Shown: one piece after another, positions 26,540-44,310 of the stretch
Numbering within the stretch: position 1 is the first letter of the stretch
How the letters are laid out: every line of letters starts with the position of its first letter
Assembly: GCA_037379345.1 (NCBI GenBank)
Contig: CM074511.1
Location: forward strand, 46,692,862 to 46,756,861
Length of the DNA stretch: 64,000 nucleotides
Origin: Perna viridis
Lineage: Eukaryota
Direction of reading: 5' to 3'
Translations under genes and position numbers: made by a program
Notes under the pieces: generated by a model
The model's input: the letters and a program-made list of their open reading frames with translations, nothing else
Database searches by the model: none
Told to the model about the DNA's origin: nothing

Positions 26540-26605
26540 CATTACATCTAATTATATTTCACAACAAACCCAACGTGCTCTCTGTTTTGGTCGCCATTTT
26601 TGAAA
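26540..26605 (-). other. Putative first exon of an unidentified divergent minus-strand gene (5' boundary approximate)
   Basis: Minus strand reads AAAATGGCGACC...GTAATG|GTGAGT, with a consensus donor (GT at 26539-26538). The downstream (left) region is CpG-depleted like a gene body. Confidence 0.6.
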
Positions 26606-26624: not shown

Positions 26625-26671
26625 AAACTTATAAGATGGCGATTTAGTGCAGAAGGAGTATCTTATTGAAG
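26625..26671 (+). other. Putative non-coding first exon of the zinc-finger gene (5' boundary approximate)
   Basis: YY1/TISU-like AAGATGGCG followed by donor GAAG|GTAAAT (GT at 26672-26673). Its ATG reads only Met-Ala-Ile-stop. Confidence 0.6.
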
Positions 26672-29600
26672 GTAAATGTTTTAAAGTTTTTTGTATGTTC
26701 GAAAAAAGAAGAGGGTTACAAAGTTTGTGTACATTGAGGAAATAAATAGTTTAAGTTTCAAAGGTTAATTAGAGGTAACGTGGTGCATTGATTGCAAAGA
26801 TACATTTAATTTTTTAAAGACAAGTGAAGAAGAATCGATAAAGCGATGTCCATTCGGCTTTATCGGACATTGGATTTTAAATTAAACTTCTGCAGCAGAT
26901 AACGATCAATTTTCTTGGAATCATCATTGTCTTGTGAATTTGAGTAGATTAGTGATTCTGGCATTGTAAAAATCAGTTAGCTACTTAACGGTACAGTAGA
27001 TCATCTTTACTACGATTTTCGCTTCATTTTGAAAAAAAGGTGAAAATGTCAAATTATGATAATTTTGTGTGTTCATTTATGATTTACCCTTGGGTCGTTT
27101 TCTTAATGTTTTTTAAACATATTATGACTAAACAATGATACATTAGACAAGGATTAAGCTTACTTGGGACACTTGCACAAGTTTAATAATAGGATGCTGA
27201 ATTGCGTAGATCTAGCAGACGAATTTCGGATCTTAAAGGTCTTTCGGGAGGGGTCAACATTTTTTATTTGTTTCGTTTTTGACAAATGATAATTAATGTT
27301 TTATTATCCTAATCTATGTAAAAACTAACACAGTAACGAGCGATGTAATTTCTTAAGTTATTAAACACACTGCATATCTGAAACGGAAAGATAAAATTGA
27401 ACTGTACAATTTCTTTTTATGAAATCAGAGAAGTTGCCCTATTGTTTAAATTGCTTGTTTAATCAAGGGCATTTGTTAGGCTCCAGATGGAATTTACAAT
27501 ATTACTGCATATGAAACTTAAGATCACTGGTTTAGATACAAAAACGTAAATAATGACAATGACCACAATGTATTGAGATTTAAATGTTTTCAAGTGCCAA
27601 TGTAATTAAAGTGACAACACTGTAGAAATTTAGTCATAAAAGTGGATTTTAGTCATTTAAGTGTGATCAACTTTTCTAAACTGATTTGATTTTAATTTTA
27701 ATACTTGACAGTTTAATTATGAAAATATGTTAGACTTTGAAATGGATACTGTAGAAAGTTGAATTAGAAAGGGTCAAATTTCTGGTGAAAATAGCTAAAA
27801 TTTCCAAGTATCCCATATGCTGATCAGTTTGACATATTAATGCCTCTTGTCTCCAGCCATTGATTGATCTCATGTAGAACCAACCTATCACAGAATTTTC
27901 TGATAGTTTTAAAATTGTCTTTACATGATAACAATACTTGGACCTTTTCATTGCATTATTTGAGTTATAAGCTGTCATTATGATAAGTTTGTGATTTAGC
28001 TTGGTAATCTATCAAAATTTTCTTGTTTTCAGTAATGAAATACTGACCAAAGGCAATAAACATGTAAACATAACATCAGTGTAGAAATAAAACCACTCCT
28101 TCAATTCCTTATATGGATAATTTAATGTTTAGTAGTGTTTCAAGGAGATCTGACTTTTTTATGTTTCTCTCAAACAGTTGGAATATGTCACCTTCTTGTC
28201 AAATAGCAATTTGAAATATCACTTCAAAGGAATTACTAATTTAAAGACTTTGTCTTAAAGTGATTTGGGAATTAAAACATAAAATACAAGGTAAAAATCA
28301 ATAATTTTCTTCACATTTCAATCTTTGATAAGAAAAATATGAAACTTCAAGCTCTTTATCAGCAAAATTCAGGCACATTTATTCTGTTTGCTAAATGAAT
28401 GAACGTACATGCTTTTTACTCAGTTAGCTATTAATTACCATCAGCAAACAATTGACAGCAAAAGTCTTTAAATCAATTTTGTAAAAAAAAAGATATAACT
28501 GAAGCCTAAGGAATATCAATAGTAGCTGATTTTTTCCCTTAATCTTTTGTTTGATTAGCAATAAAATATGCTGGTTCATATTTAAGATAATGCATCTTTC
28601 ATCAGGACCATTGTAAGTACAGGAGTTTTTAATGGCTCCCCATGTGTTAATAATTTCTCTTATCAAAATAGTATACTAGTTATATATATTAGTTTTGTTA
28701 CTTTGCAAGTATTTTTGTATAAGTTACTTGTAGAAGGAACATCCCCATCACATGTACATTTAATTTAACATCACAGTCAAGGATCACCCATACTGTAACT
28801 GTCATGAATTATAACCTCTACTTGCAGAAACAACAGAAATATGAATTAATTGTTTTGAGCTGCACCTTTGAGAAGTAAAAAGAAGCCATATTGGAATTTT
28901 GATGTTTTGCTTGCTGAAGAGAATTCCATGGTAAATATGAATTGCTTCACCATCCATGCATGCAACCCTAATGTGTCCCTGGGTTTGAAGTCTGGTTTGC
29001 CATTATTGATAATGTACTGTAGAACCTCAAATAATTAATTTCTGAAATTAAAACAAAAATCTTTCAATTTAATTTTTTTTAAATTTGATTTTAAAAATTT
29101 AAATTAATATTAGATTAATATTGATGTATTGTGAAAAGAGCAGTCTTACAACAAGCTGTTGAATTTGAATTAAATAATTGATTCTTTTTGCCATAAACCC
29201 AATTTTTCCAAAGTAAAATCTTTTTAAAGTTTTATGCATTTTGAAATAATACAGTAACAGATGTTTTGAATTAAAAATGTAAGAGGTATCTAAAGGATAG
29301 CTTTCATTGATTAAAGATAATTTCTTGTACAAATTAAGGCATTTGCATGTTTTTAAGCTTAAAATGTGTTAATTCCCTTCTTACATAATATCTTTGGGAG
29401 AGATGTACAGCATCATAGGGGTCCTCATGCAGGGGGGAAAACAATGACATTTGGTCTTAGTGAATGATGAGAATTTTGAATTACTACTTTCTTAAGGTCC
29501 ATTGGGGGTTGTATGAATATTAACTTTCTTTTATCTTTGGTTAATATGAAATATTAATGACACTGAAAAACTTGTATATCTTCAGTACTAGTATAATGTA

Positions 29601-32600
29601 ATATTATTGTAAACAGATGCTGGATAATTACTATAACCTTTTCAAATATGTAAAACTTTATCCCAAAGCTTGCTTCAGATATTGTCTAATAATACATCTG
29701 GGTAATTACTTTAATTCAAAGTTTGGATAACATGCTGATGATTATATGGGCAGTTAGGGGTTAAATATGACTATAATATTCCATCTCGGGCAATTGGCTG
29801 TTAGGGTTATTATGCTAATAGCTAATTTTCTAAGTTTAAAATAAATACATTGAATCTATGCATATCCACATTATTGTGATTAATAGAATTTAACCTTCAA
29901 TAAACCAATCTTAAACAAACAGTGATACCCATCCCTGGAAGTTTATTGCCAATTAAAACTTCTCCACATTTCTTCAAAACATATTTCAATCTGGCATTTT
30001 CTTTTGACATATCTAAAAGAAACATTAAAAAGAAATCAATTAGTTCAGTAACACATATATAAACAGTGGTGTCCATTTACCCAAGATTATTGAAATTGTG
30101 ACTTAGTTTAAGCAAAAATGTTTCAACTAATATTTTAATGATTTAAAAGTGGAGAGCTTGTAAAATTAGTTTGATTTAATATGGCATGTAGAGTATTAAT
30201 AATTTTGATACTGCTGGTAAAACCCCATCTCACTTATTATATTCATATGTTTGACATACTGTTTAATTACAGAGCATGCTGTTGTGTTAAATGCCACTTT
30301 TACTTAAGTACTAAATTGTCTGATATCCATCTCCCCCTCTACCTTCATTTTACATTGTATAAGACACCATAGAAAGCTTCTGATCAAAAGATGAGGATTA
30401 AGATGAATATCAAATCATTTGGAATGCTTTCAAAGTATCTGATTAATCCTTGATTGGATTTCATTCAGGATCTTTCAGGAATATTACTGTCCTGTTTAAT
30501 TAAGGGGTTAATATGGGTTAACTGAAAACAAAGGAATTTTATCATTACTCATATTTCGTCGAATTGTTGAAATTAACACCCTTGAAAGGTTCTCCAATTC
30601 CATTATTTCAATCAAATGAAATGGAAATAAAAAAAATCTTAAGTGAGACAAATCTTCATGTCATGATCTCAGAATTTAGTGTCAATTTGCAGTTATAAAA
30701 TTTCTAAGAAGATTGAATGTTCAGCTTCATGCTGGTAGCGATTTAAATTTAATGCCAGTCGTCATGTCATTAATTAGATGTTATTAAACATTTTGACATG
30801 GGTCAGTTGTATATTACTACAAAGATCAGTTCATTATAACATTATGTAACACTTACAGTGATTGATGAGCTTGTTATATAGGGATATTGTATCAGATTTA
30901 TGATGGAAAGACAAAGTAGTTCAGCTATTATGGTAGGCATCTACATGTAAATGATCATAAGTACATGTAGTAAGATCAGATTATAGTTGATCTTCTACAT
31001 GAATAGCTATAAGATATTTATAATGAATTTAATGAGATAAAAGGTGTGGATTTAAAAGATACATATACCACGTTATACTTTTATAGCACCTGAAGTGATG
31101 CACAAGTTATCATGATAGTCAAAATTTCACTGATAACAATCTTCAACTTGTAAATAAAAATCTTTTGAAAATGTTTGTTTATAACATGTAAATTACTGTT
31201 AGCAATGATTGATAAGAACAATAAAAATGTATAAATGATAATTACTCCATTTCAGATAGATTTATTTCTCTACCTAAACTTTCACCCTGTAGAGCACCCC
31301 TGCTCTTAGAATCTTGTTATATGTTTAATTAGATATCAAAGTTTTTGTATCAAACAGATAGATAATTTTAATTTCTTGCTGTATAGTTAGTATAAAACAT
31401 GCGTCAGTGTCGCTATAAATGGGCAATGAAATATGATCCTGCAATGTAAAGATTTACTGAGGGATATCTGGCCTAAATCTTTCTACTGACCATATGGTCA
31501 AGACTAAATTCCACATAAAACTCTAGATAATAGCTTTAGTCATCTCTTATTCCATCAATAATAATTAGCATATTTAAAATCTTCTGTAATGAGTTATTGA
31601 TTATGGAGTTTTTCAAGATTTGTCAGTTCCTCAAATCTGGATTCCATTTACCATGAAACTTATTTGATTCTGATATAAACAAAATGATGGACATCAGGTT
31701 TGAAAGATCAAAGTAAAATAGAGTATTTGGTTTAAGTGTTGTTGGCACCACTTAATATATTCTAACTATCATCATTTTTAAAGATGATAAAAATATGGCT
31801 CTTTGACCTTGGTCTTTTATCCCAATTTATGTTTCTTGAATTGGAAATACAGCTGTTGTTTGAAAAATTAAAATCTTTTTACAAAGATAATTGAAAAAAC
31901 ATATATACCAATTTAATAGAACTGAAGCAAATTAAGAGGAAGTATCTGAACATAATGTATATTCTGTACAGGGGATCAAAAGGGGTTCTTAAGTGACCAT
32001 TGTAAAAACAATTATCTTTTAATAAGATGAAAGCTTTTTAAAGAAATGAGGAACAGTTTTTTTATTTAAATACTGTGTGCAAACATTGATTGTTGTTTCT
32101 ACAGTTAACACTTACATTAGTTATCAAAGGTTTCTTTAATGGCAGATTTAACTCAAATTAAAATGATTCACATTTTGTTCTCTTGAAAACAGATTTATTT
32201 AAATAATTAAAGTTAAATCCTTTTTAAAAGATTATGTAAGACTTATAGCTCAGCTCAAACAGGATTAACACACTGAGAAATAGTAAATTTGATAAAAATT
32301 TCATTTTAAAAAAGAACATTTGAAGGATTATGTTACATTTAAAGTTAAGTGACTTAAAGCTGCCTGAAGAAGAAAGGTAATGTTCTTTATAGTAGAGTTT
32401 TTGCTCTTTCCTTAGAAATTCAAAAGTGACCTCTTGTAATTATTTTCCTATCACACTTGTGCCTGTTTTCCTGTGGAATATTCAAATCTGTTCTAAATGA
32501 GTCAGAAAGAGAAATGTGACATTTGTTTGATCAAGATCTTGCCAAATAAATTGTAAAATTTTAAATTGGATAATGATAGTTATTGATGATTTTATGATCT

Positions 32601-35600: not shown

Positions 35601-37524
35601 AAAATTAAGAAGTTTTTGTAAGAATAATTTGTAGATAACAAAGTTTTTGTTAATTAAATCACACATGTGTATCTATAATTATACAAAGATCTCTTTAATA
35701 TTTGTATGTTAAATTTATGTATCATGTATTTTAAGTGGATGTTCCAAGTTAATTTATTGTGCAGATTTATTTTAGTGATGTTCAATGTTACACTACATCA
35801 TACATGTACATGTATGTCTAAATAGATTTCAATGAGAATCAAGAGATGAGTATTTTGATAAGTTCAATCAGTACACTGTCGGTAGTAGCTAAGGATGCAA
35901 TTGGCTTGGCAGTATATTTTTAGAAGCAAATAGATCAGAAAATGGAATTCATTGTTGTTGTTTTTGATGAGAGAAAATATCAATTATTAAAACATATCAT
36001 ACTAATAAAAACTTGGTAGGTTTCCATGACAACAAAATTGTGGAAAAAAAGTTTTAAAATGAGATCATAGATCAAGCATTTATTATCTTGTCAATTAAAA
36101 TGTCATTACTGAACAGAAAAGAAAATTGTTTTTGTCTCTTGATCTTGGATTTTTTAAAAGCTTTTAGTGCAAAATTATTTTTTAAGGGATATGACAAAAT
36201 ATAAATTTCATAATTGTCAAAATACATTAATGTACAGCCTCTTTAATTTTATAACAATTGCATGTTGTGTTGTCTTTATATTATTTTAAAAGCATTTATA
36301 ATGGATCAAAAGAAAGACAAATCATAAAAAGCAATTAAATGAAAAATGATACATGGTTGTTGAGCAGAATTTGTCTTCCATTTCTGATTTCCTTTAATCA
36401 TCTTTTATTTAGCATAATTTTTAAGGGGGTAAACTGAAAAGAGGAATTTAATTGATGCATTTTCCACATAATTAAATATTAAATGCATAAAGTACATGCA
36501 CACATGAACAGTTGAAGGAAATAACCTGTATGTAATTGGTTTTTTTTATTATCAGTTGTACATATGTTACTTCTTTTTTTTTCATGTACAAATCAGATTT
36601 AATAATTCTCAAGATATGATTAGACAAAAATATTCAATTTGTAAAAAAGTCGATAGACTATAAGACCTTGAGTCTACCTATACAAGTATTTGTCCAACCC
36701 TTTCCATTTTAACTTTATTGCCTAGCTTATGGAAGGTCATTAACAGAAAGCTTTATAACTCCCAATCTGTTGCTCTAATACCTTTATAACACATGCTAGC
36801 AATCTTTAAATTTAAAATGAAACATTCTGCTTTAAATTTCCACATCTTGTAACATCTGAGCTCATGTTTCAATACCTGCAGTTTTATATAAATGAAACTA
36901 AAGGATTCAATTTTCTAAGGATTTCATTTATTGTGTTGCAACAAGGAGGTAAGTTTCTAATAAAACAAGTGGAATATGTGATAATATATCATTCATGATT
37001 CCATTGTTTCTACTTTTTTTTCCCTGGAGAAGTCTTTATTTAGGATCATTCTATTCTAAGGTGTGTAATTACATATTTCTGGTGTCACATATACACACAT
37101 ATTTGTGCCCTATCTTGTACTTACTTTATGTGGCAGTCTTTAAACAACCTACATATTGATTGCATGGTCAGATATGGCTAGCTTTGATCAATATAGTTTT
37201 GAAACTTTGATCCAGATTTTGTAGTGCTGATAATCAGCAACCAAATATAGATATAATTCAAAATGGATGTGAAAGGTCATCTTTGTATGGTCTCAACATC
37301 ACCTTCTTTTATTTCTTAACATATCTGATACAAAAGTTTTTTATGGATTTTTGCAGGACAGTGGTATTTATTCTCAGTCATCTTGTAAGGAACTTGACAT
37401 TTTTACCATAAACATGGAAAATGTTAAAAATACCCTGCAGCAAAACTTTGATGTTTATTATTTATTAATATTTTATAAATATACATGTAGTTATGTATTT
37501 GACAATTTTTTTTTCTACTTACAG
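26672..37524 (+). other. Putative ~10.9-kb 5'-UTR intron of the zinc-finger gene (may contain further non-coding exons)
   Basis: Donor at 26672 and strong acceptor TTTTTTTTTCTACTTACAG| ending at 37524, 73 nt upstream of the ORF start. CpG-depleted throughout. Confidence 0.55.
34200..34322. repeat. ~65-bp tandem duplication
   Basis: TGCAGATTTTG...TCATCTTATTGAGTTATTTCCCCT.AATCAAATTTT at 34203 and 34268. Confidence 0.85.
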
Positions 37525-37597
37525 AATTTATGTAATGGTGGAATAGTACTTCAACAAAATCAATTAATAGAATAACGTAGAAGATTATATCATTTTA

Positions 37598-40500
37598 ATG
37601 GTTGTTCAAGACAACAACGAGCAGATGTTAGCCATGGATGTCTTAGCTTTTGACAAAATGAAGGGCAATCGCCGAAAACAAAGCAAACCCATAAGGGTGT
37701 CAAACAACCCTGATAGTGAAGGTATAGAACCAAACAAGTTTGTTGGACAGCCTGAGGCTGAGTTTCCAAACAATGGCAATGACATTGAGAACAGGAGTGA
37801 GTCTGAAGCTTATGATGTAAGATCTGAGAAGGAATCCGATATTAATGGCAGAGAAAATGACAATGCAACGACAGAAAATAACAATAAGCTAATGTCATCC
37901 TTCCAGGGAAGCAACCCAGAAAGTTATCCAACAAAATATCATCGCCTTGGAAGTGAGCTTTTCCAGCCAGCTTTCCCTACTAATGGGAATAGTCCTCCAG
38001 AAAGAAGGGAATCAGCACATATGAATGGAGAAGACAGATTAAATGATATGCTTGAAAAGAGCCCAAACTCAGATGAGGAGGGAAAGAAAGTTGATGGTGG
38101 AAATCGTATATTCCACCAAGATGCATACTGTGAAATCTGTGACAGAGAATTTTGCAATAAATACTTCCTGAAGACACATAGAGCCAATAAGCATGGCATT
38201 TTTGATAATTCCACTTCACCAGTCTCAACAATGGGCTCTGGCTTGTCTCTACCTCAAGACATCATCACAACTGCATCACCTGTACAACCACCAACATTGA
38301 CCACTTCATCTTCATTTAAAGTTATGGATTTCATTCAGAACCTTCCAGCAACTGAACCTAAAATTAAGAAACCAGAGACTCCTAAACCTTTGAAACCGGA
38401 ATCAAAGTCACCTCTTCTGCCAAATCCTCCATCAACACCAACAACACCTGTTGGTTCAAATGTTAGCAGTGGTGCTAACACCAATAACAGCAATAGCAAA
38501 CCTGTATCTAAAGATATGGAGGATTTCTGTGAGCTTTGCCAGAAACATTTCTGCAACAAATACTACCTCAAAAAGCACAAGAATGATGTCCATGGCATTG
38601 CTCCCCCAGATGGTTCATCTACTTCTAACAAACGTGGAAGACCAAAAGATCTACAGGCACAACTGGATGCTATTACTTCATCTACTATGTCACTTGGGAA
38701 TCCAACTTCCTCTTCATCTGCTCTGTCATCCTTCATGCCACCACATTCTTTGCCAAACATGCCAGGACTACCAAATATGCCTCCTGGTGTCATGGTTTTA
38801 AATCCATTTATGGCACCGATGCTTCTTCATGCTGGAGGACTCATGCCAAACCAAGGAGGACTACCAACTCCACCCATGATGTCACAACCTCCACCAACAT
38901 CCCCTACTCCACCTCCAATGCCATCAAGATCAACTGCCAATACTCCACCCCCATCTTCTGGTCCTAACTCTGGTGATCAGACCCCAACATCTAATGGTGC
39001 TTTGAATCAGGAAGCCTATTGTGATTTATGTCAAAAAGAGTTCTGCAACAAATATTTCTTGAAGATCCACAGAGCCAATAAACATGGTGTTTTCTTTGAT
39101 GATTTTCCATTTGGTCCACCAATACCACCATACAAGATGCCTCCAATGTTTCCAGAAAAGCCTACCTCTGAAAAACCTGAGTCTGCTAATGATGAAGAAA
39201 AGAAACAAGACAGCAGTCCAAAGGCAGGGACATCTCTTGTATCAAACCAGGATAACTCTGGTACATACTGTAACCTGTGTAACCAGGAGTTTGCTAGCAA
39301 GTACACATATCGTATTCATCGTATTCAGATTCATGGTATGCTGAATGAAGCCTATGAGGGTGCTCTGATGGAGGACATCATGAAAAACTCCATGAAAGAT
39401 AGAATTGAATCTCAGATGAAAATCTCTCCTAATTCTCTTGCCAAAATGGAAATGGATGACTATTTCAACAATAGAATGATGGAAAATGGAATGTCAACCA
39501 TGTTCAGTAATATGGTAGCTGCCAAACTTGCCGACCGTGTCACCTGTGATATCTGTAACAAGATACTCTGCAATAAATACTTTTTGAAAGTTCACAAACA
39601 GAAAGTTCATGGAGTAGAACCCAGTCCTGAACAAGATCTCAAACTAGATATCATTAAATCTCACCATAATGAACCTAGTCCTGCCAAATCCATGAAAATA
39701 GAACCGTCAGATCCAAGTCCAAAACTTCCTTCATCATTTGGACCAACATTTCCTATGTCATATCCAAAGACAAGTGATGCACCACTTAATATGTCTCCGA
39801 ACTCTGTCGAGAAGCCATCAAAAGAGGAGCTTGTCAAAATGGGCATTGATCCAGAGGCATATTGTGAAATTTGCAAGAAAGAATTCTGCAGCAAGTATTT
39901 TCTGCGTACCCATAAACTCAATATCCATGGAATAAGAAGTGACAAACCTGAAACACCAGAAACCGACAAAATGGCATTCTTGAACATGAATATGTCACTT
40001 AGTCAACCAACGATGGCAATGAATCCATGTAGCCTGTCAATGGCTATAAATCAAAACAATACACCGCTTAACCTTAGTCTGGGAGGCAACAAAAAAGGCA
40101 AAAATGGTTATGAGAAACACTCATGGAGATGGAAGGAACCAGTCAACTCTTCACGAGTCATCTGTGAGATCTGTAACAAAGAGGTCTGCAATAAGTACTT
40201 CCTAAGAACACATAAGCTAAACAAGCATGGAATCTTGCCAAGTGAAACATCACTTTCTCCAAGTCGAAACTCACCATATCAGTCAGAATTTGATACTCAG
40301 AGCAACTCCTCATTGCCAACTGATCTCAGCATGAAGGAGAGGAATAGTAGCAGTCCTATGGCTATGCATCTTGATGGCAACATGTCACGACCAAGTAGCA
40401 TATATGGACTTGAACACAAAAGAGATTCTGATGAAAATGAAAATTCAGAATACTCATACACTGAAATCTGTCAACTGTGTGATCAGAAATTTAAGAACTT

Positions 40501-41353
40501 AAAACATCTGAAGCAACATATAGTTAAAGATCATGGCATGCTTCCTGCAGCTCGTAAAGCACTGTATTCTGAGGACAATAGAATCTGTAGAATGTGTGAC
40601 GCTTCTTTCCCAAGCGAACTTGCCATGCACTTACACATGATTCAAGAGCACAATGCGCAGGTTAGTCTAAACACAAGTGAGAATGAACGTGAAAATATGC
40701 CACCAACACAGCATCGTAGAAAACTGAAATCAAGGTATGGACTAAATAAACTTTCTCTAATCACAAAACAGAAGTATTACAGTTGTTCCCAGTGTGACTT
40801 TAGAAGTAAATGGCTGAACAATCTAAGTGATCATGAACTCAAAGTACATAATATTGCTCCTCGTAATGGACAAATGCTTGGTAACATTGTGAACAATCCA
40901 TCAAAACTTGGAAAGTACAAGTGTACTAAGTGTAGCAGGAAATTTCCATCAGCTATTCTCTGTAACAGACATATAAGAGAAGAACATATACGCAAGAAGG
41001 ACTTTTCTGTAGTTAAGTCAAATACTCGTCACATGTGTGAAAAATGCAGCTTCTCAACCCGATTTGTAAAACAACTGAAACGTCATATTGAAAGAGTTCA
41101 TAGCAGAACACCAGAAAGTCAAATAAGAACAGAGAATGGAAAAGAGATATCAGGGAAAACAAACAGTTCAGAGCCATTGAATCTTCATTTACAAGCCATG
41201 AACAAATCAGACTGTGAGATGCAGGCTTTCAAGATCAAGGACTGTTCATCTGTTTACAGTGACTTTGTTACAACTGTTGTTCAGATGCCAGTGCGTCACC
41301 ATGTGAGTGCACCTATTACTGTGACCTTCCATTTAACCCCTATGGAACAATAG
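37598..41353 (+). CDS. Multi-C2H2 zinc-finger protein (12 dispersed fingers), putative transcriptional repressor with NuRD-type (RRKQSKP) and CtBP-type (PLNLS, PTDLS) motifs; single coding exon
   Basis: Uninterrupted 1251-codon ORF in otherwise ORF-poor DNA. Twelve C-x2-C-x12-H-x4-H units; six share C[NS]KY[FY]L..H....HG. Linkers are Pro/Ser/Met-rich. An in-frame TAG at 37568-37570 bounds the 5' end. Alternative starts are 37634 (GCCATGG) and 37658 (AAAATG). Confidence 0.95.
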   Translation: MVVQDNNEQMLAMDVLAFDKMKGNRRKQSKPIRVSNNPDSEGIEPNKFVGQPEAEFPNNGNDIENRSESEAYDVRSEKESDINGRENDNATTENNNKLMSSFQGSNPESYPTKYHRLGSELFQPAFPTNGNSPPERRESAHMNGEDRLNDMLEKSPNSDEEGKKVDGGNRIFHQDAYCEICDREFCNKYFLKTHRANKHGIFDNSTSPVSTMGSGLSLPQDIITTASPVQPPTLTTSSSFKVMDFIQNLPATEPKIKKPETPKPLKPESKSPLLPNPPSTPTTPVGSNVSSGANTNNSNSKPVSKDMEDFCELCQKHFCNKYYLKKHKNDVHGIAPPDGSSTSNKRGRPKDLQAQLDAITSSTMSLGNPTSSSSALSSFMPPHSLPNMPGLPNMPPGVMVLNPFMAPMLLHAGGLMPNQGGLPTPPMMSQPPPTSPTPPPMPSRSTANTPPPSSGPNSGDQTPTSNGALNQEAYCDLCQKEFCNKYFLKIHRANKHGVFFDDFPFGPPIPPYKMPPMFPEKPTSEKPESANDEEKKQDSSPKAGTSLVSNQDNSGTYCNLCNQEFASKYTYRIHRIQIHGMLNEAYEGALMEDIMKNSMKDRIESQMKISPNSLAKMEMDDYFNNRMMENGMSTMFSNMVAAKLADRVTCDICNKILCNKYFLKVHKQKVHGVEPSPEQDLKLDIIKSHHNEPSPAKSMKIEPSDPSPKLPSSFGPTFPMSYPKTSDAPLNMSPNSVEKPSKEELVKMGIDPEAYCEICKKEFCSKYFLRTHKLNIHGIRSDKPETPETDKMAFLNMNMSLSQPTMAMNPCSLSMAINQNNTPLNLSLGGNKKGKNGYEKHSWRWKEPVNSSRVICEICNKEVCNKYFLRTHKLNKHGILPSETSLSPSRNSPYQSEFDTQSNSSLPTDLSMKERNSSSPMAMHLDGNMSRPSSIYGLEHKRDSDENENSEYSYTEICQLCDQKFKNLKHLKQHIVKDHGMLPAARKALYSEDNRICRMCDASFPSELAMHLHMIQEHNAQVSLNTSENERENMPPTQHRRKLKSRYGLNKLSLITKQKYYSCSQCDFRSKWLNNLSDHELKVHNIAPRNGQMLGNIVNNPSKLGKYKCTKCSRKFPSAILCNRHIREEHIRKKDFSVVKSNTRHMCEKCSFSTRFVKQLKRHIERVHSRTPESQIRTENGKEISGKTNSSEPLNLHLQAMNKSDCEMQAFKIKDCSSVYSDFVTTVVQMPVRHHVSAPITVTFHLTPMEQ

Positions 41354-44310
41354 ACATGTGACTTATTTTTCCAGTGTTCGTGTAATGTGTTCATATTTTG
41401 AGGTTGCTTTTTATTTAAGGAGGTAGACCTAGGGTAAGGGACATAACTCATGAAATCAGTGATATGTTTGCATCATTCTCAATTTTACCAAAGCCTCTCA
41501 AGCTTTCATTTGAAGCAGAATAAAATGAATCCAAGTTAATTAGATGCTTACATAAGATTGTTGTAAAATGGTGAATACAAACATTCCAACGATTTTTAAG
41601 AGTTGTGTCCCTTACTCTAGGTCTACCTCCTTAATCTTTTTTGTTTTGTTGTGAAATTCCCGCATGATTTTTTTTACTGTTTTTAGAAATGGTTATTTTT
41701 GAGAATTTTTATATTGTGCAATATGCTAAACAACAATTAAGCAAAGCATTAAAGTGTGTAGTTCTAGAAATTGTGCTAAATAGATCACAATAAGGTTTTG
41801 CATTGGACAAGATTCAAAAGGTTGTAATTAGTTAAAAAAATAAGAAGTTGATGACAACCCAAATTCTTTTTGTTGTATTATCTATTTTGAGAGAATTACA
41901 TACGTATAAAAATCAAAAAGAAAAAAAGTTACTTCCAATATTTGTTTCTCGTTTGAAGGAGAAAAACTACGCATAGGTATTAGCTAAGTCAGTATTAGAA
42001 TCATTTATCTTCATTGGGGTACATTGTTGATGCAGAATTATCATTTTGCTTAGTAGGTCTGTGTCAAAGGATGAAGAGTGCTATTATTTTATTTATATTT
42101 ATGATAGGGAAGTTTATTCTTCTAATTGTTGGTAGAAAGATCTTAAGGGTGAAATATTTTCATCCATGGCTAGTCATTTCAGATTTATTGGAAACAAATT
42201 TCTCAGTTCCTTTACTGGAACTATTTACTTCAACTATTTAAAAATTATAACATGTAAACCTTGTATTAACCAGAGGCATTAACCAAAAATCATGTAAGGT
42301 GATGAAGAATTATTTAAAACCATGTAATTTTGTACCTTTATAGTTTACAAAAATTGCGGAAGATTTGTAAAATTTGATCTCTTAATTTTGAAATGACTAT
42401 GCCTTCATGTACAGATATTATTATTTATTTTGAAGTGTGCCATCCATAGTCACGCAACAAAATCGGCATGTAGATAGGCTATTATTACATAAGCGGTAGT
42501 TGTATAGGGTGTGCCACTGCTTAACGGCATGTATCTGTTTTGTTGATATATATATTGTTGAATTTTGTGTGTATTTAGTGTTTTTAAACAACAAACAATT
42601 CCATGGGCGAACCATAGCCAAAATGTTTGTATGATGTTTTTTTTAGCTATTTTTTGAAAACCTTGTTTTCATTGTTTTTAAACTGATGCCCTTACATATA
42701 TCATTGCCTGTACTTAGCCTAAAATTTCAATATAACAGCTTTTCAACCACAAACTCATACTATCAGGGATTTTTTGTCCTCTAAATTTTCACATCATTTT
42801 GCAGTTTTCAAGTAGTTAGGTTTCATTCATTTGTTCTCCATATTTTTTTCTTTCATTTCATGGTTCTGAGATTTGTTTGTCTTATTTTGTGGTTTTCCAG
42901 TGTGATTTTTTTCTATATAACTAATATATATATTTGGCAATATTGTGATCTAAATATAGAACAGTGTGTGTTGGGTGCGTGTGAGTTTTCAAACAGGATT
43001 GTTATATTTTTGGTATTATATATTATATATAATTGGTTGGTTTTTAATTTATTTTTCTTAAGTCACACATTATGCATTCTACACAATTCTAGTCCTGATT
43101 TTGTTGTTTGATTAATTCACAGTGGGTCACTTAGAAAGTAAACACATCTAGCACTGCAGTGGGTCATTCAGCCATTTTACATACTTGATATAATCAATTG
43201 AAATTTTTCAATACTTAAAATGTAAAGGTAAAGAAATGTCATATTATATATGTACTTTTCAATGATAAGTATAGTGTTACATAAAATCCATTTCTGAAGT
43301 GACCCATTTACAGTACACTTGTTGGGTTTCAAAAATGTCCATGAAGTTTATACATGTAGTGAGTTACATATGTAGCAGTACATAATTCTTTGGGTTGTAC
43401 TTACATGGCAATAAACTTGTTTAATCAAAATAGGTGGCTATCTTTGATGAATAAGCTATTGTTAAATTTCATGGCACTTTTGATTGGTTTTGTTGTTTGG
43501 ATTATCTGTAGCAGAACTTTTGGTTAGAAGTTTTTGTAGTAACTTATGTTTACACCATGTTTGTTTTGACTGTTGAATGCTTGTTATAATCTAGTCAAAA
43601 ATATTTAGTGTTCTAATATACAAACTTCAGGATGTGTTCAGTGGTTTCTGGTTAGAGGCTCTGTTTTAAAGCACTTCAAAACAGTTTCTAGTGTATTGTA
43701 TTTTTTTTTTTTTTTGGTACACATATTTTTGGAGACCAACAACATCACTTCGAAATATCAATGTTTTAACTCTGTTTTAGATTTAACTAGCCAAAATATA
43801 ATGAAAGGTGAAATATTATTTAAAAAAGGAGAAATGTTATAAAAAAGATGAGTATTTTCAGTGTTGTTGTGTCCTTCCTTGTGGTAAGAGCCTGCAGTAA
43901 GACCATTGTAATCAGGATCATTTGAAAAAAGTAGGTGAAATTTTCAATCAGAAATGGAGCACATCCTGGTGACTGAAAGAAAATTGTGTGTTCAGATTTT
44001 TGAAGACTTGTTGTATATTGGTTGGTTTTCTTTTGACTATAGGTAAAGCCTCTTCTTGATATGACTGAGCGAAGACATGTGAATGCAGTACTTAACATGT
44101 CTCTTATAAATAGGCACTTTAATCATTATGAAATGTGCTTTCTGATTTGATAATAAGATGCAATAGAAAATTTTAAAGGGCATTTTTTGTGGAAGTTTTG
44201 AGTGCAATAGAAAATCAAACAATTCAAGACCTTTTCCTAACATTATGCAATGTTTTCTGCCTACCTCAAGTGAATATTTGTGCAATAAAATTGTTTAATT
44301 TGATTGTTTT
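41354..44310 (+). other. Putative long 3' UTR of the zinc-finger gene
   Basis: T/GT-rich sense strand. AATAAA at 41519, 43410 and 44284; the last is followed by a T/G-rich tract. CpG depletion ends shortly after, at ~44420. Confidence 0.5.
41419..41630. mobile_element. Intact TTAA-flanked MITE (Kolobok-like) in the putative 3' UTR
   Basis: TTAA|GGAGGTAGACCTAGGGTAAGGGACATAACTC ... GAGTTGTGTCCCTTACTCTAGGTCTACCTCC|TTAA: 31-bp TIR with 2 mismatches. Purine-purine start fits Kolobok rather than piggyBac. Confidence 0.88.

Follow-up and report, generated by a model that had tools for sequence, protein, structure and literature searches.

The window analysed here is a 64,000-nucleotide stretch of Perna viridis DNA (assembly GCA_037379345.1, contig CM074511.1, positions 46,692,862-46,756,861 of the forward strand; all positions below are window coordinates). 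The only long open reading frame within it (37571-41353, 1260 codons) belongs to a gene that is spliced into transcript-like contigs and has a single coding exon. The gene and the features of its zinc-finger product are:

26637-26671, plus strand: non-coding leader exon, whose 5' end is merely the start of the contig (GT donor at 26672)
28828-28930, plus strand: second non-coding leader exon (joint 28929 -> 37524)
37525-41440, plus strand: last exon with the entire coding sequence, its 3' end lying at or past 41440
37598-41353, plus strand: ORF of 1251 aa counted from the first ATG, a C2H2 protein of the DIE-1/CG18265 family
37670-37696, plus strand: RRKQSKPIR, which fits both RRKQxxP and the internal form RKxxxPx[KR]; predicted RBBP4 ligand
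38129-40228, plus strand: fingers 1-7, widely spaced, six of the family-signature type and one degenerate
40064-40078, plus strand: PLNLS, a possible CtBP-type motif (weak lead)
40316-40330, plus strand: PTDLS, a possible CtBP-binding PxDLS motif (lead)
40469-41101, plus strand: fingers 8-12, less conserved C2H2
41198-41350, plus strand: C-terminal beta-rich tail, conserved

The joint 28929 -> 37524, a GT..AG intron with 8594 bases skipped, was present in contigs of all four runs, and the joint 26669 -> 28826 (GT..AG, cut +2) in contigs of runs X2 and X3 (2 of 4 runs); contigs of X1 and X2 were gapless over 37524-41440. These contigs came from guessed-RNA or unlabelled runs, none of the listed runs being recorded as RNA, and the joints are canonical. 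As an in-frame stop (37568) lies inside the last exon, this splice form has no upstream coding extension, and its protein begins at one of the four ATGs named in the preliminary description (37598, 37625, 37634 and 37658), all of which are in frame within 37571-41353.

The spliced leader (26637-26671, 28828-28930 and 37525-37597) holds only short uORFs of 1-17 codons, one of which crosses the last splice junction; such uORFs could tune translation and start-site choice. Two YY1-like sites lie at 26592 and 26633, at the first leader exon, which suggests a promoter there, ~11 kb upstream of the ORF. At the other end of the gene, ~60 bases past the stop codon, is a 220-base element (41415-41634) with 41-base terminal inverted repeats that are 90% complementary. 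Contig depth over this element rises to thousands; it is likely a high-copy MITE in the 3' UTR, and a related end may lie near 32019.

The protein carries 12 dispersed C2H2 fingers, with neighbours 16-142 residues apart. As the preliminary description had held, this layout is unlike those of FOG, SALL, BCL11 and ZNF423/521: CCHC fingers and TGEKP linkers are absent, and the shortest gap is 16 residues. Six fingers, at 38129, 38528, 39020, 39545, 39863 and 40163, follow the signature CxxCxKxxC[NS]KY[FY]LxxHxxxxHG, and the degenerate finger among fingers 1-7 is at 39269. The signature fingers have an extra invariant cysteine (C[NS]KY) and near-identical helix residues in six widely spaced copies, a design that is odd for sequence reading and possibly points to a shared protein ligand or a repeat ligand. 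For the whole protein, only generic finger families and zf-CRD scored above the Pfam cut-off, with no CCHC_ZFPM, and a PDB sequence search returned five weak generic finger matches (best E 0.19). PxDL[ST] motifs occur in 48 of 120 relatives, as against 7% of shuffles, and their location varies across phyla. The ~50-residue tail is a conserved element of the family, shared by members from molluscs to flies: an HMM of our own, built from 60 of the 356 relatives, matched 295 of these 356, fly CG18265 included. Searched against Pfam, the tail gave no family above the cut-off, and its structural model (pLDDT 82.5, pTM 0.58) gave no Foldseek match at E <= 0.001 (best VIA Z 2.2). Such a lack of a fold match is no proof of a new fold; our guess is that the tail serves as an interaction or dimerisation module.

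Ahead of all fingers, the translation of 37658-37699 reads MKGNRRKQSKPIRV, as the preliminary description had given it, and the RRKQSKP core occupies 37670-37690. The motif starts at residue 25, 16, 13 or 5 when counted from ATG 37598, 37625, 37634 or 37658, respectively. The AAAATG context noted earlier for the Met at 37658 is indeed there (the surroundings read GACAAA-ATG-A), and the context of ATG 37634 is GCC-ATG-G. Moreover the segment preceding 37658 is conserved as MLAM[DE]xxA[FY][DE]KM in 13 of the 13 top matches. Given the GCC-ATG-G at 37634 and these conserved residues, we infer that translation starts at or before 37634, so that the motif would lie at residue 13-25 instead of 5, and regard 37658 as an improbable start codon. 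The extreme N-terminal placement that is a FOG-type trait (MSRRKQ, residue 3) was not found, residue 5 being the best case. How terminal the motif is, which the preliminary description had made depend on the choice of ATG, matters less than had been thought, because the motif is internal in most members of the family and fits the internal motif of ZNF512B.

To whom the protein is related was addressed by sequence searches. The first search found 714 relatives. Among the matches listed, the named sequence nearest to the query came from Mytilus trossulus (77% identity); behind it ranked other molluscs, annelids, a brachiopod, nemerteans and arthropods, and almost all of them carry the label 'uncharacterized'. 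A second search, run without a word index, found 559 relatives, of which the best 150 were taken. Further named relatives came from flies, a rotifer, acanthocephalans, a fluke, a leech and a nematode. Every named row among the matches listed is a protostome and many rows are unnamed, so that absence from deuterostomes does not follow from these best-row listings. Within the own genome, all six finger matches and the one tail match fell inside this ORF, i.e., one copy was found.

The Drosophila melanogaster member is CG18265 (Q9VVH2, 1322 aa), reached through a Drosophila nasuta match; CG16779, considered earlier as the fly member, proved wrong. CG18265 resembles the bivalve protein in having a single RRKQxxP before all fingers (RRKQHNPSR at residue 144), signature fingers, a first finger region that is 72% identical over 43 columns, and the same C-terminal tail; it differs in its fingers (10, with a middle set unlike that of the bivalve) and in placing the motif far deeper inside the chain. 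In a FastTree tree, 27 members group largely in line with animal phylogeny, and the nematode forms a long branch beside the arthropods (support 0.86). Single copy, shared tail and species-like tree thus all speak for CG18265 as an orthologue.

The tie to the worm is narrower. The fragment of C. elegans DIE-1 (C18D1.1) used on protein-binding microarrays carries a signature finger and has an experimental DNA motif (PMC4434323), and the string 'CNKYFL' occurs once in that paper's construct table. In a comparison by eye, 20 of 24 positions agree between the finger in this construct and window finger 7, and the nematode match P0333 closely resembles the DIE-1 fragment. In WormBase, die-1 is described as homologous to CG18265. 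A literature search for 'CNKYFL' gave no match. DIE-1 being seen as a fragment only, its orthology to the bivalve gene rests on one finger type plus the long branch in the tree; judged by sequence, the gene described here is best read as the single bivalve gene of the protostome DIE-1/CG18265 family. What had been proposed as a 'separate, possibly uncharacterised family' is therefore separate and does share the motif, but it is not uncharacterised throughout, as it has an orthologue in CG18265 and a DIE-1-type finger, and DIE-1 is genetically well studied.

Left/right identity of the ASE and AWC neurons is under the control of DIE-1; the protein also has a role in the embryonic hypodermis, and by genetic evidence it represses fozi-1 and maintains its own expression (PMC3894411). 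In Pristionchus, the homologue of DIE-1 acts as a repressor of ASER fate (PMC12919926). Mutants of MYST acetyltransferase show the same ASE defect as loss of DIE-1. Together, DIE-1 autoactivation and the MYST phenotype argue that the family is not a pure repressor. In the fly, over-expression of CG18265, a putative miR-317 target, in somatic testis cells leads to germ-cell tumours (PMC11482908).

Conservation of the motif in orthologues, a check proposed in the preliminary description, was borne out from molluscs to flies. RRKQxxP was present in i) 104 of 120 sequences of the first search (best 120 of 714, the window protein included); ii) 67 of 105 further representatives from the second search; iii) 101 of 106 further matches of a fly-centred search. 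Among pooled sequences with the signature finger, 294 of 356 carry RRKQxxP (289 of 322 when the N-terminus is plausibly complete), each once and each upstream of all C2H2 fingers, although these pooled counts are not independent, since the pool is rich in dipterans and cluster mates. Across 35 named taxa the motif was found in 31. Shuffling the 120 first-search proteins produced RRKQxxP in 42 of 60,000 shuffles, and 0.0005 occurrences would be expected for the window protein; the motif is no chance match. A genome-wide search with a degenerate DNA pattern for the motif was uninformative (484 matches).

The motif lies at a median position of residue 77, at or before residue 3 in only 3 of the 294 carriers and by residue 5 in 18. 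Motif-less sequences number 62 of 356, 28 of which look 5'-truncated; those not obviously truncated include one sequence each from a fluke, a leech and an acanthocephalan, among others. The sole nematode sequence in the pool (P0333) has neither motif nor tail, and worm DIE-1, the best-studied member, may have lost the motif.

The strongest argument came from a position that was not part of the search pattern: the second residue after the proline is R in 275 carriers and K in 19, i.e., basic in 294 of 294. The consensus published for the internal NuRD motif of the ZNF512B type is RK(x)xxPx[KR], with a basic last position. The internal RRKQKTPKK of ZNF512B has been crystallised on RBBP4 (PDB 8TX8), and its K429 at this position lies on RBBP4 E41 and is essential, K429R still binding (PMC11602157). 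Thus the unselected position is basic throughout and matches essential K429, and RKQSKPIR meets the ZNF512B-type internal consensus as well as RRKQxxP, so that with its basic residue at proline+2 the bivalve peptide fits both published forms.

The receptor is conserved too. An RBBP4 gene is present in the own genome (G000:C6, minus strand), and its exons keep 12 of the 12 residues known from FOG-1 contacts or mutagenesis (residue list from PMC3020727). Complex modelling with RBBP4, which the preliminary description had also proposed, placed the peptide in the FOG-1 pocket: residues 13-44 scored 0.82-0.83 in three runs, as against 0.02 for the best control, at least 90% of contacts were common to the runs, and partner pLDDT was 57-58. 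The threshold applied to such models was passed by 51 of 78 microbial pairs with a solved complex and by 2 of 108 mismatched ones; for eukaryotes the figures were 71 of 105 (solved) and 2 of 126 (unrelated). The receptor in the model was slug RBBP4 (P0359), not that of the own genome, and the runs used no alignments made in this analysis. Confident contacts cover residues 25-28 (RRKQ) and 30-35 (KPIRVS) despite the 12 residues preceding the motif; in human numbering of the receptor, R33 is modelled on E41 and P31 on H71/P43. The score is probably aided by memory of the solved RBBP4 complexes with FOG-1, BCL11A and ZNF512B. As like complexes have been solved and the tool is uncalibrated on peptides and disordered chains, the pass shows likeness and not binding.

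Some invertebrate RBBP4 records (P0171, P0352, P0353 and P0364) have an insertion of 5-16 residues right after the H71-T72 loop that lines the pocket. This is possibly an alternative splice form that alters motif binding.

Taken together, the best reading, from sequence and model, is that a known NuRD docking motif has here a protostome carrier not recognised before, with binding predicted. We consider it quite probable that the RRKQSKPIR of this DIE-1/CG18265-family protein docks in the RBBP4 pocket, recruits NuRD and mostly represses finger-bound genes. In the proposed mechanism, the first residues, RRKQ, would sit in the acidic top pocket of RBBP4 (E126/N128/Y181/E319/K376/E395), the proline would pack on H71/P43, and the arginine two residues further on would meet E41 as K429 of ZNF512B does; a free N-terminus would not be needed for binding. 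The complex so recruited would be the NuRD deacetylase/remodeller rather than another RBBP4 complex. The fingers would contact DNA, in line with the microarray binding of the DIE-1 fragment, and NuRD brought to finger-bound genes would mostly repress them; PTDLS may add CtBP.

Other explanations have to be weighed against this reading. The basic cluster may be mainly a nuclear localisation signal whose likeness to the NuRD motif is incidental. KK directly precedes the motif in 191 of the 294 carriers, making a nuclear-import-like KKRRK, and basic clusters like this one are classical importin-alpha signals. Such a signal, however, needs no Q, P and basic residue at fixed spacing, whereas proline+2 is basic in every carrier; in many members from molluscs and other spiralians, RRKQ is preceded by SS, SN or GG; and further basic clusters occur in the window protein at residues 345, 832 and 1040. 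We consider this account quite unlikely as a replacement for RBBP4 docking, while the two functions could coexist. That the protein belongs, in diverged form, to one of the families known to carry the motif (ZNF423/521, BCL11, SALL, FOG or ZNF512B) is very improbable. A few relatives are auto-named 'zinc finger protein 423-like', 'zinc finger protein 516', 'B-cell lymphoma/leukemia 11A' or 'PR domain zinc finger protein 15', and searches of the Atlas led to nothing but generic, automatically named C2H2 clusters, the nearest being 'putative zinc finger protein 219'. But these names conflict with one another, the protein has no CCHC finger, TGEKP linker or tandem array, its best match to a solved structure had that E of 0.19, and its signature finger matches DIE-1; moreover the fly member is CG18265, whereas fly FOG is Ush and fly ZNF423 is OAZ. 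Finger layout, CG18265 and the DIE-1 finger thus largely refute a hidden member of a known carrier family.

A further alternative keeps the docking and changes its outcome: the peptide would bind RBBP4 or MTA, but instead of NuRD repression this would engage a different RBBP4 complex, tune or activate genes, or compete with histone H3 for the pocket. The model covers RBBP4 only, the FOG-1 motif acts in activation as well as in repression and makes contact with MTA1 too (PMC3020727), and DIE-1 autoactivates and shares a phenotype with the MYST complex. On the other hand, motif carriers pulled down NuRD and not PRC2 (PMC11602157), and from fly extract a FOG-1 peptide recovered dNuRD but none of Pc, E(z) and LSD1 (PMC7891773). 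We regard this outcome as unlikely, and prefer NuRD recruitment with mostly repression.

Extending the preferred reading from this gene to its relatives, we lean towards the view that the DIE-1/CG18265 family comprises ancient, protostome-wide, unrecognised NuRD-recruiting transcription factors with a ZNF512B-like internal motif and an undescribed C-terminal beta module of their own. In flies, CG18265 would then join Ush and OAZ as the third carrier, overlooked because the motif does not sit at its N-terminus, and some nematodes and parasitic flatworms may have lost the motif. There is protostome precedent: fly Ush-B binds dNuRD through the motif, and the 2021 paper names Ush as the first fly carrier and OAZ, with an N-terminal motif, as the second (PMC7891773). 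Of human RRKQxxP proteins, 19 of 23 have prior evidence of NuRD interaction (bioRxiv 10.1101/2025.06.23.660971).

The preliminary description had allowed that orthology to a characterised family would take away the novelty. This is partly the case, given CG18265 and DIE-1, but in the open-access literature we found no paper tying either of them, or the family, to NuRD or to RRKQxxP, although such an interaction may have been published. Supplements of three NuRD papers, partial and holding no clear interactome table, had no row for CG18265 or DIE-1 as NuRD interactors, and the literature searched yielded no binding experiment for any family member. The docking motif and its mechanism are already known and only the carrier family is new; it is not a new kind of system. 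Still, a barely understood family gains a testable mode of action, and the motif in CG18265 allows a four-residue mutation test in flies. Both CG18265 and the bivalve gene become tied to worm DIE-1, with its roles in epithelial intercalation and left/right neuron identity. Internal RRKQxxPx[RK] motifs would also be worth scanning for in invertebrate proteomes.

Among the closest known systems is the internal motif of ZNF512B: both proteins have an internal RRKQxxP that also fits RKxxxPx[KR], and R33 of the bivalve protein is modelled on E41 like K429. They differ in that ZNF512B has C2HC/C2H2 finger pairs and its motif in mid-protein, whereas the bivalve motif lies in an N-terminal leader. FOG-1/Ush, SALL, BCL11, ZNF423/521 and ZNF827 share the same seven-residue core, and the bivalve peptide is predicted to use the same RBBP4 pocket, but their motif is N-terminal (MSRRKQxxP) and their finger layout is unrelated.
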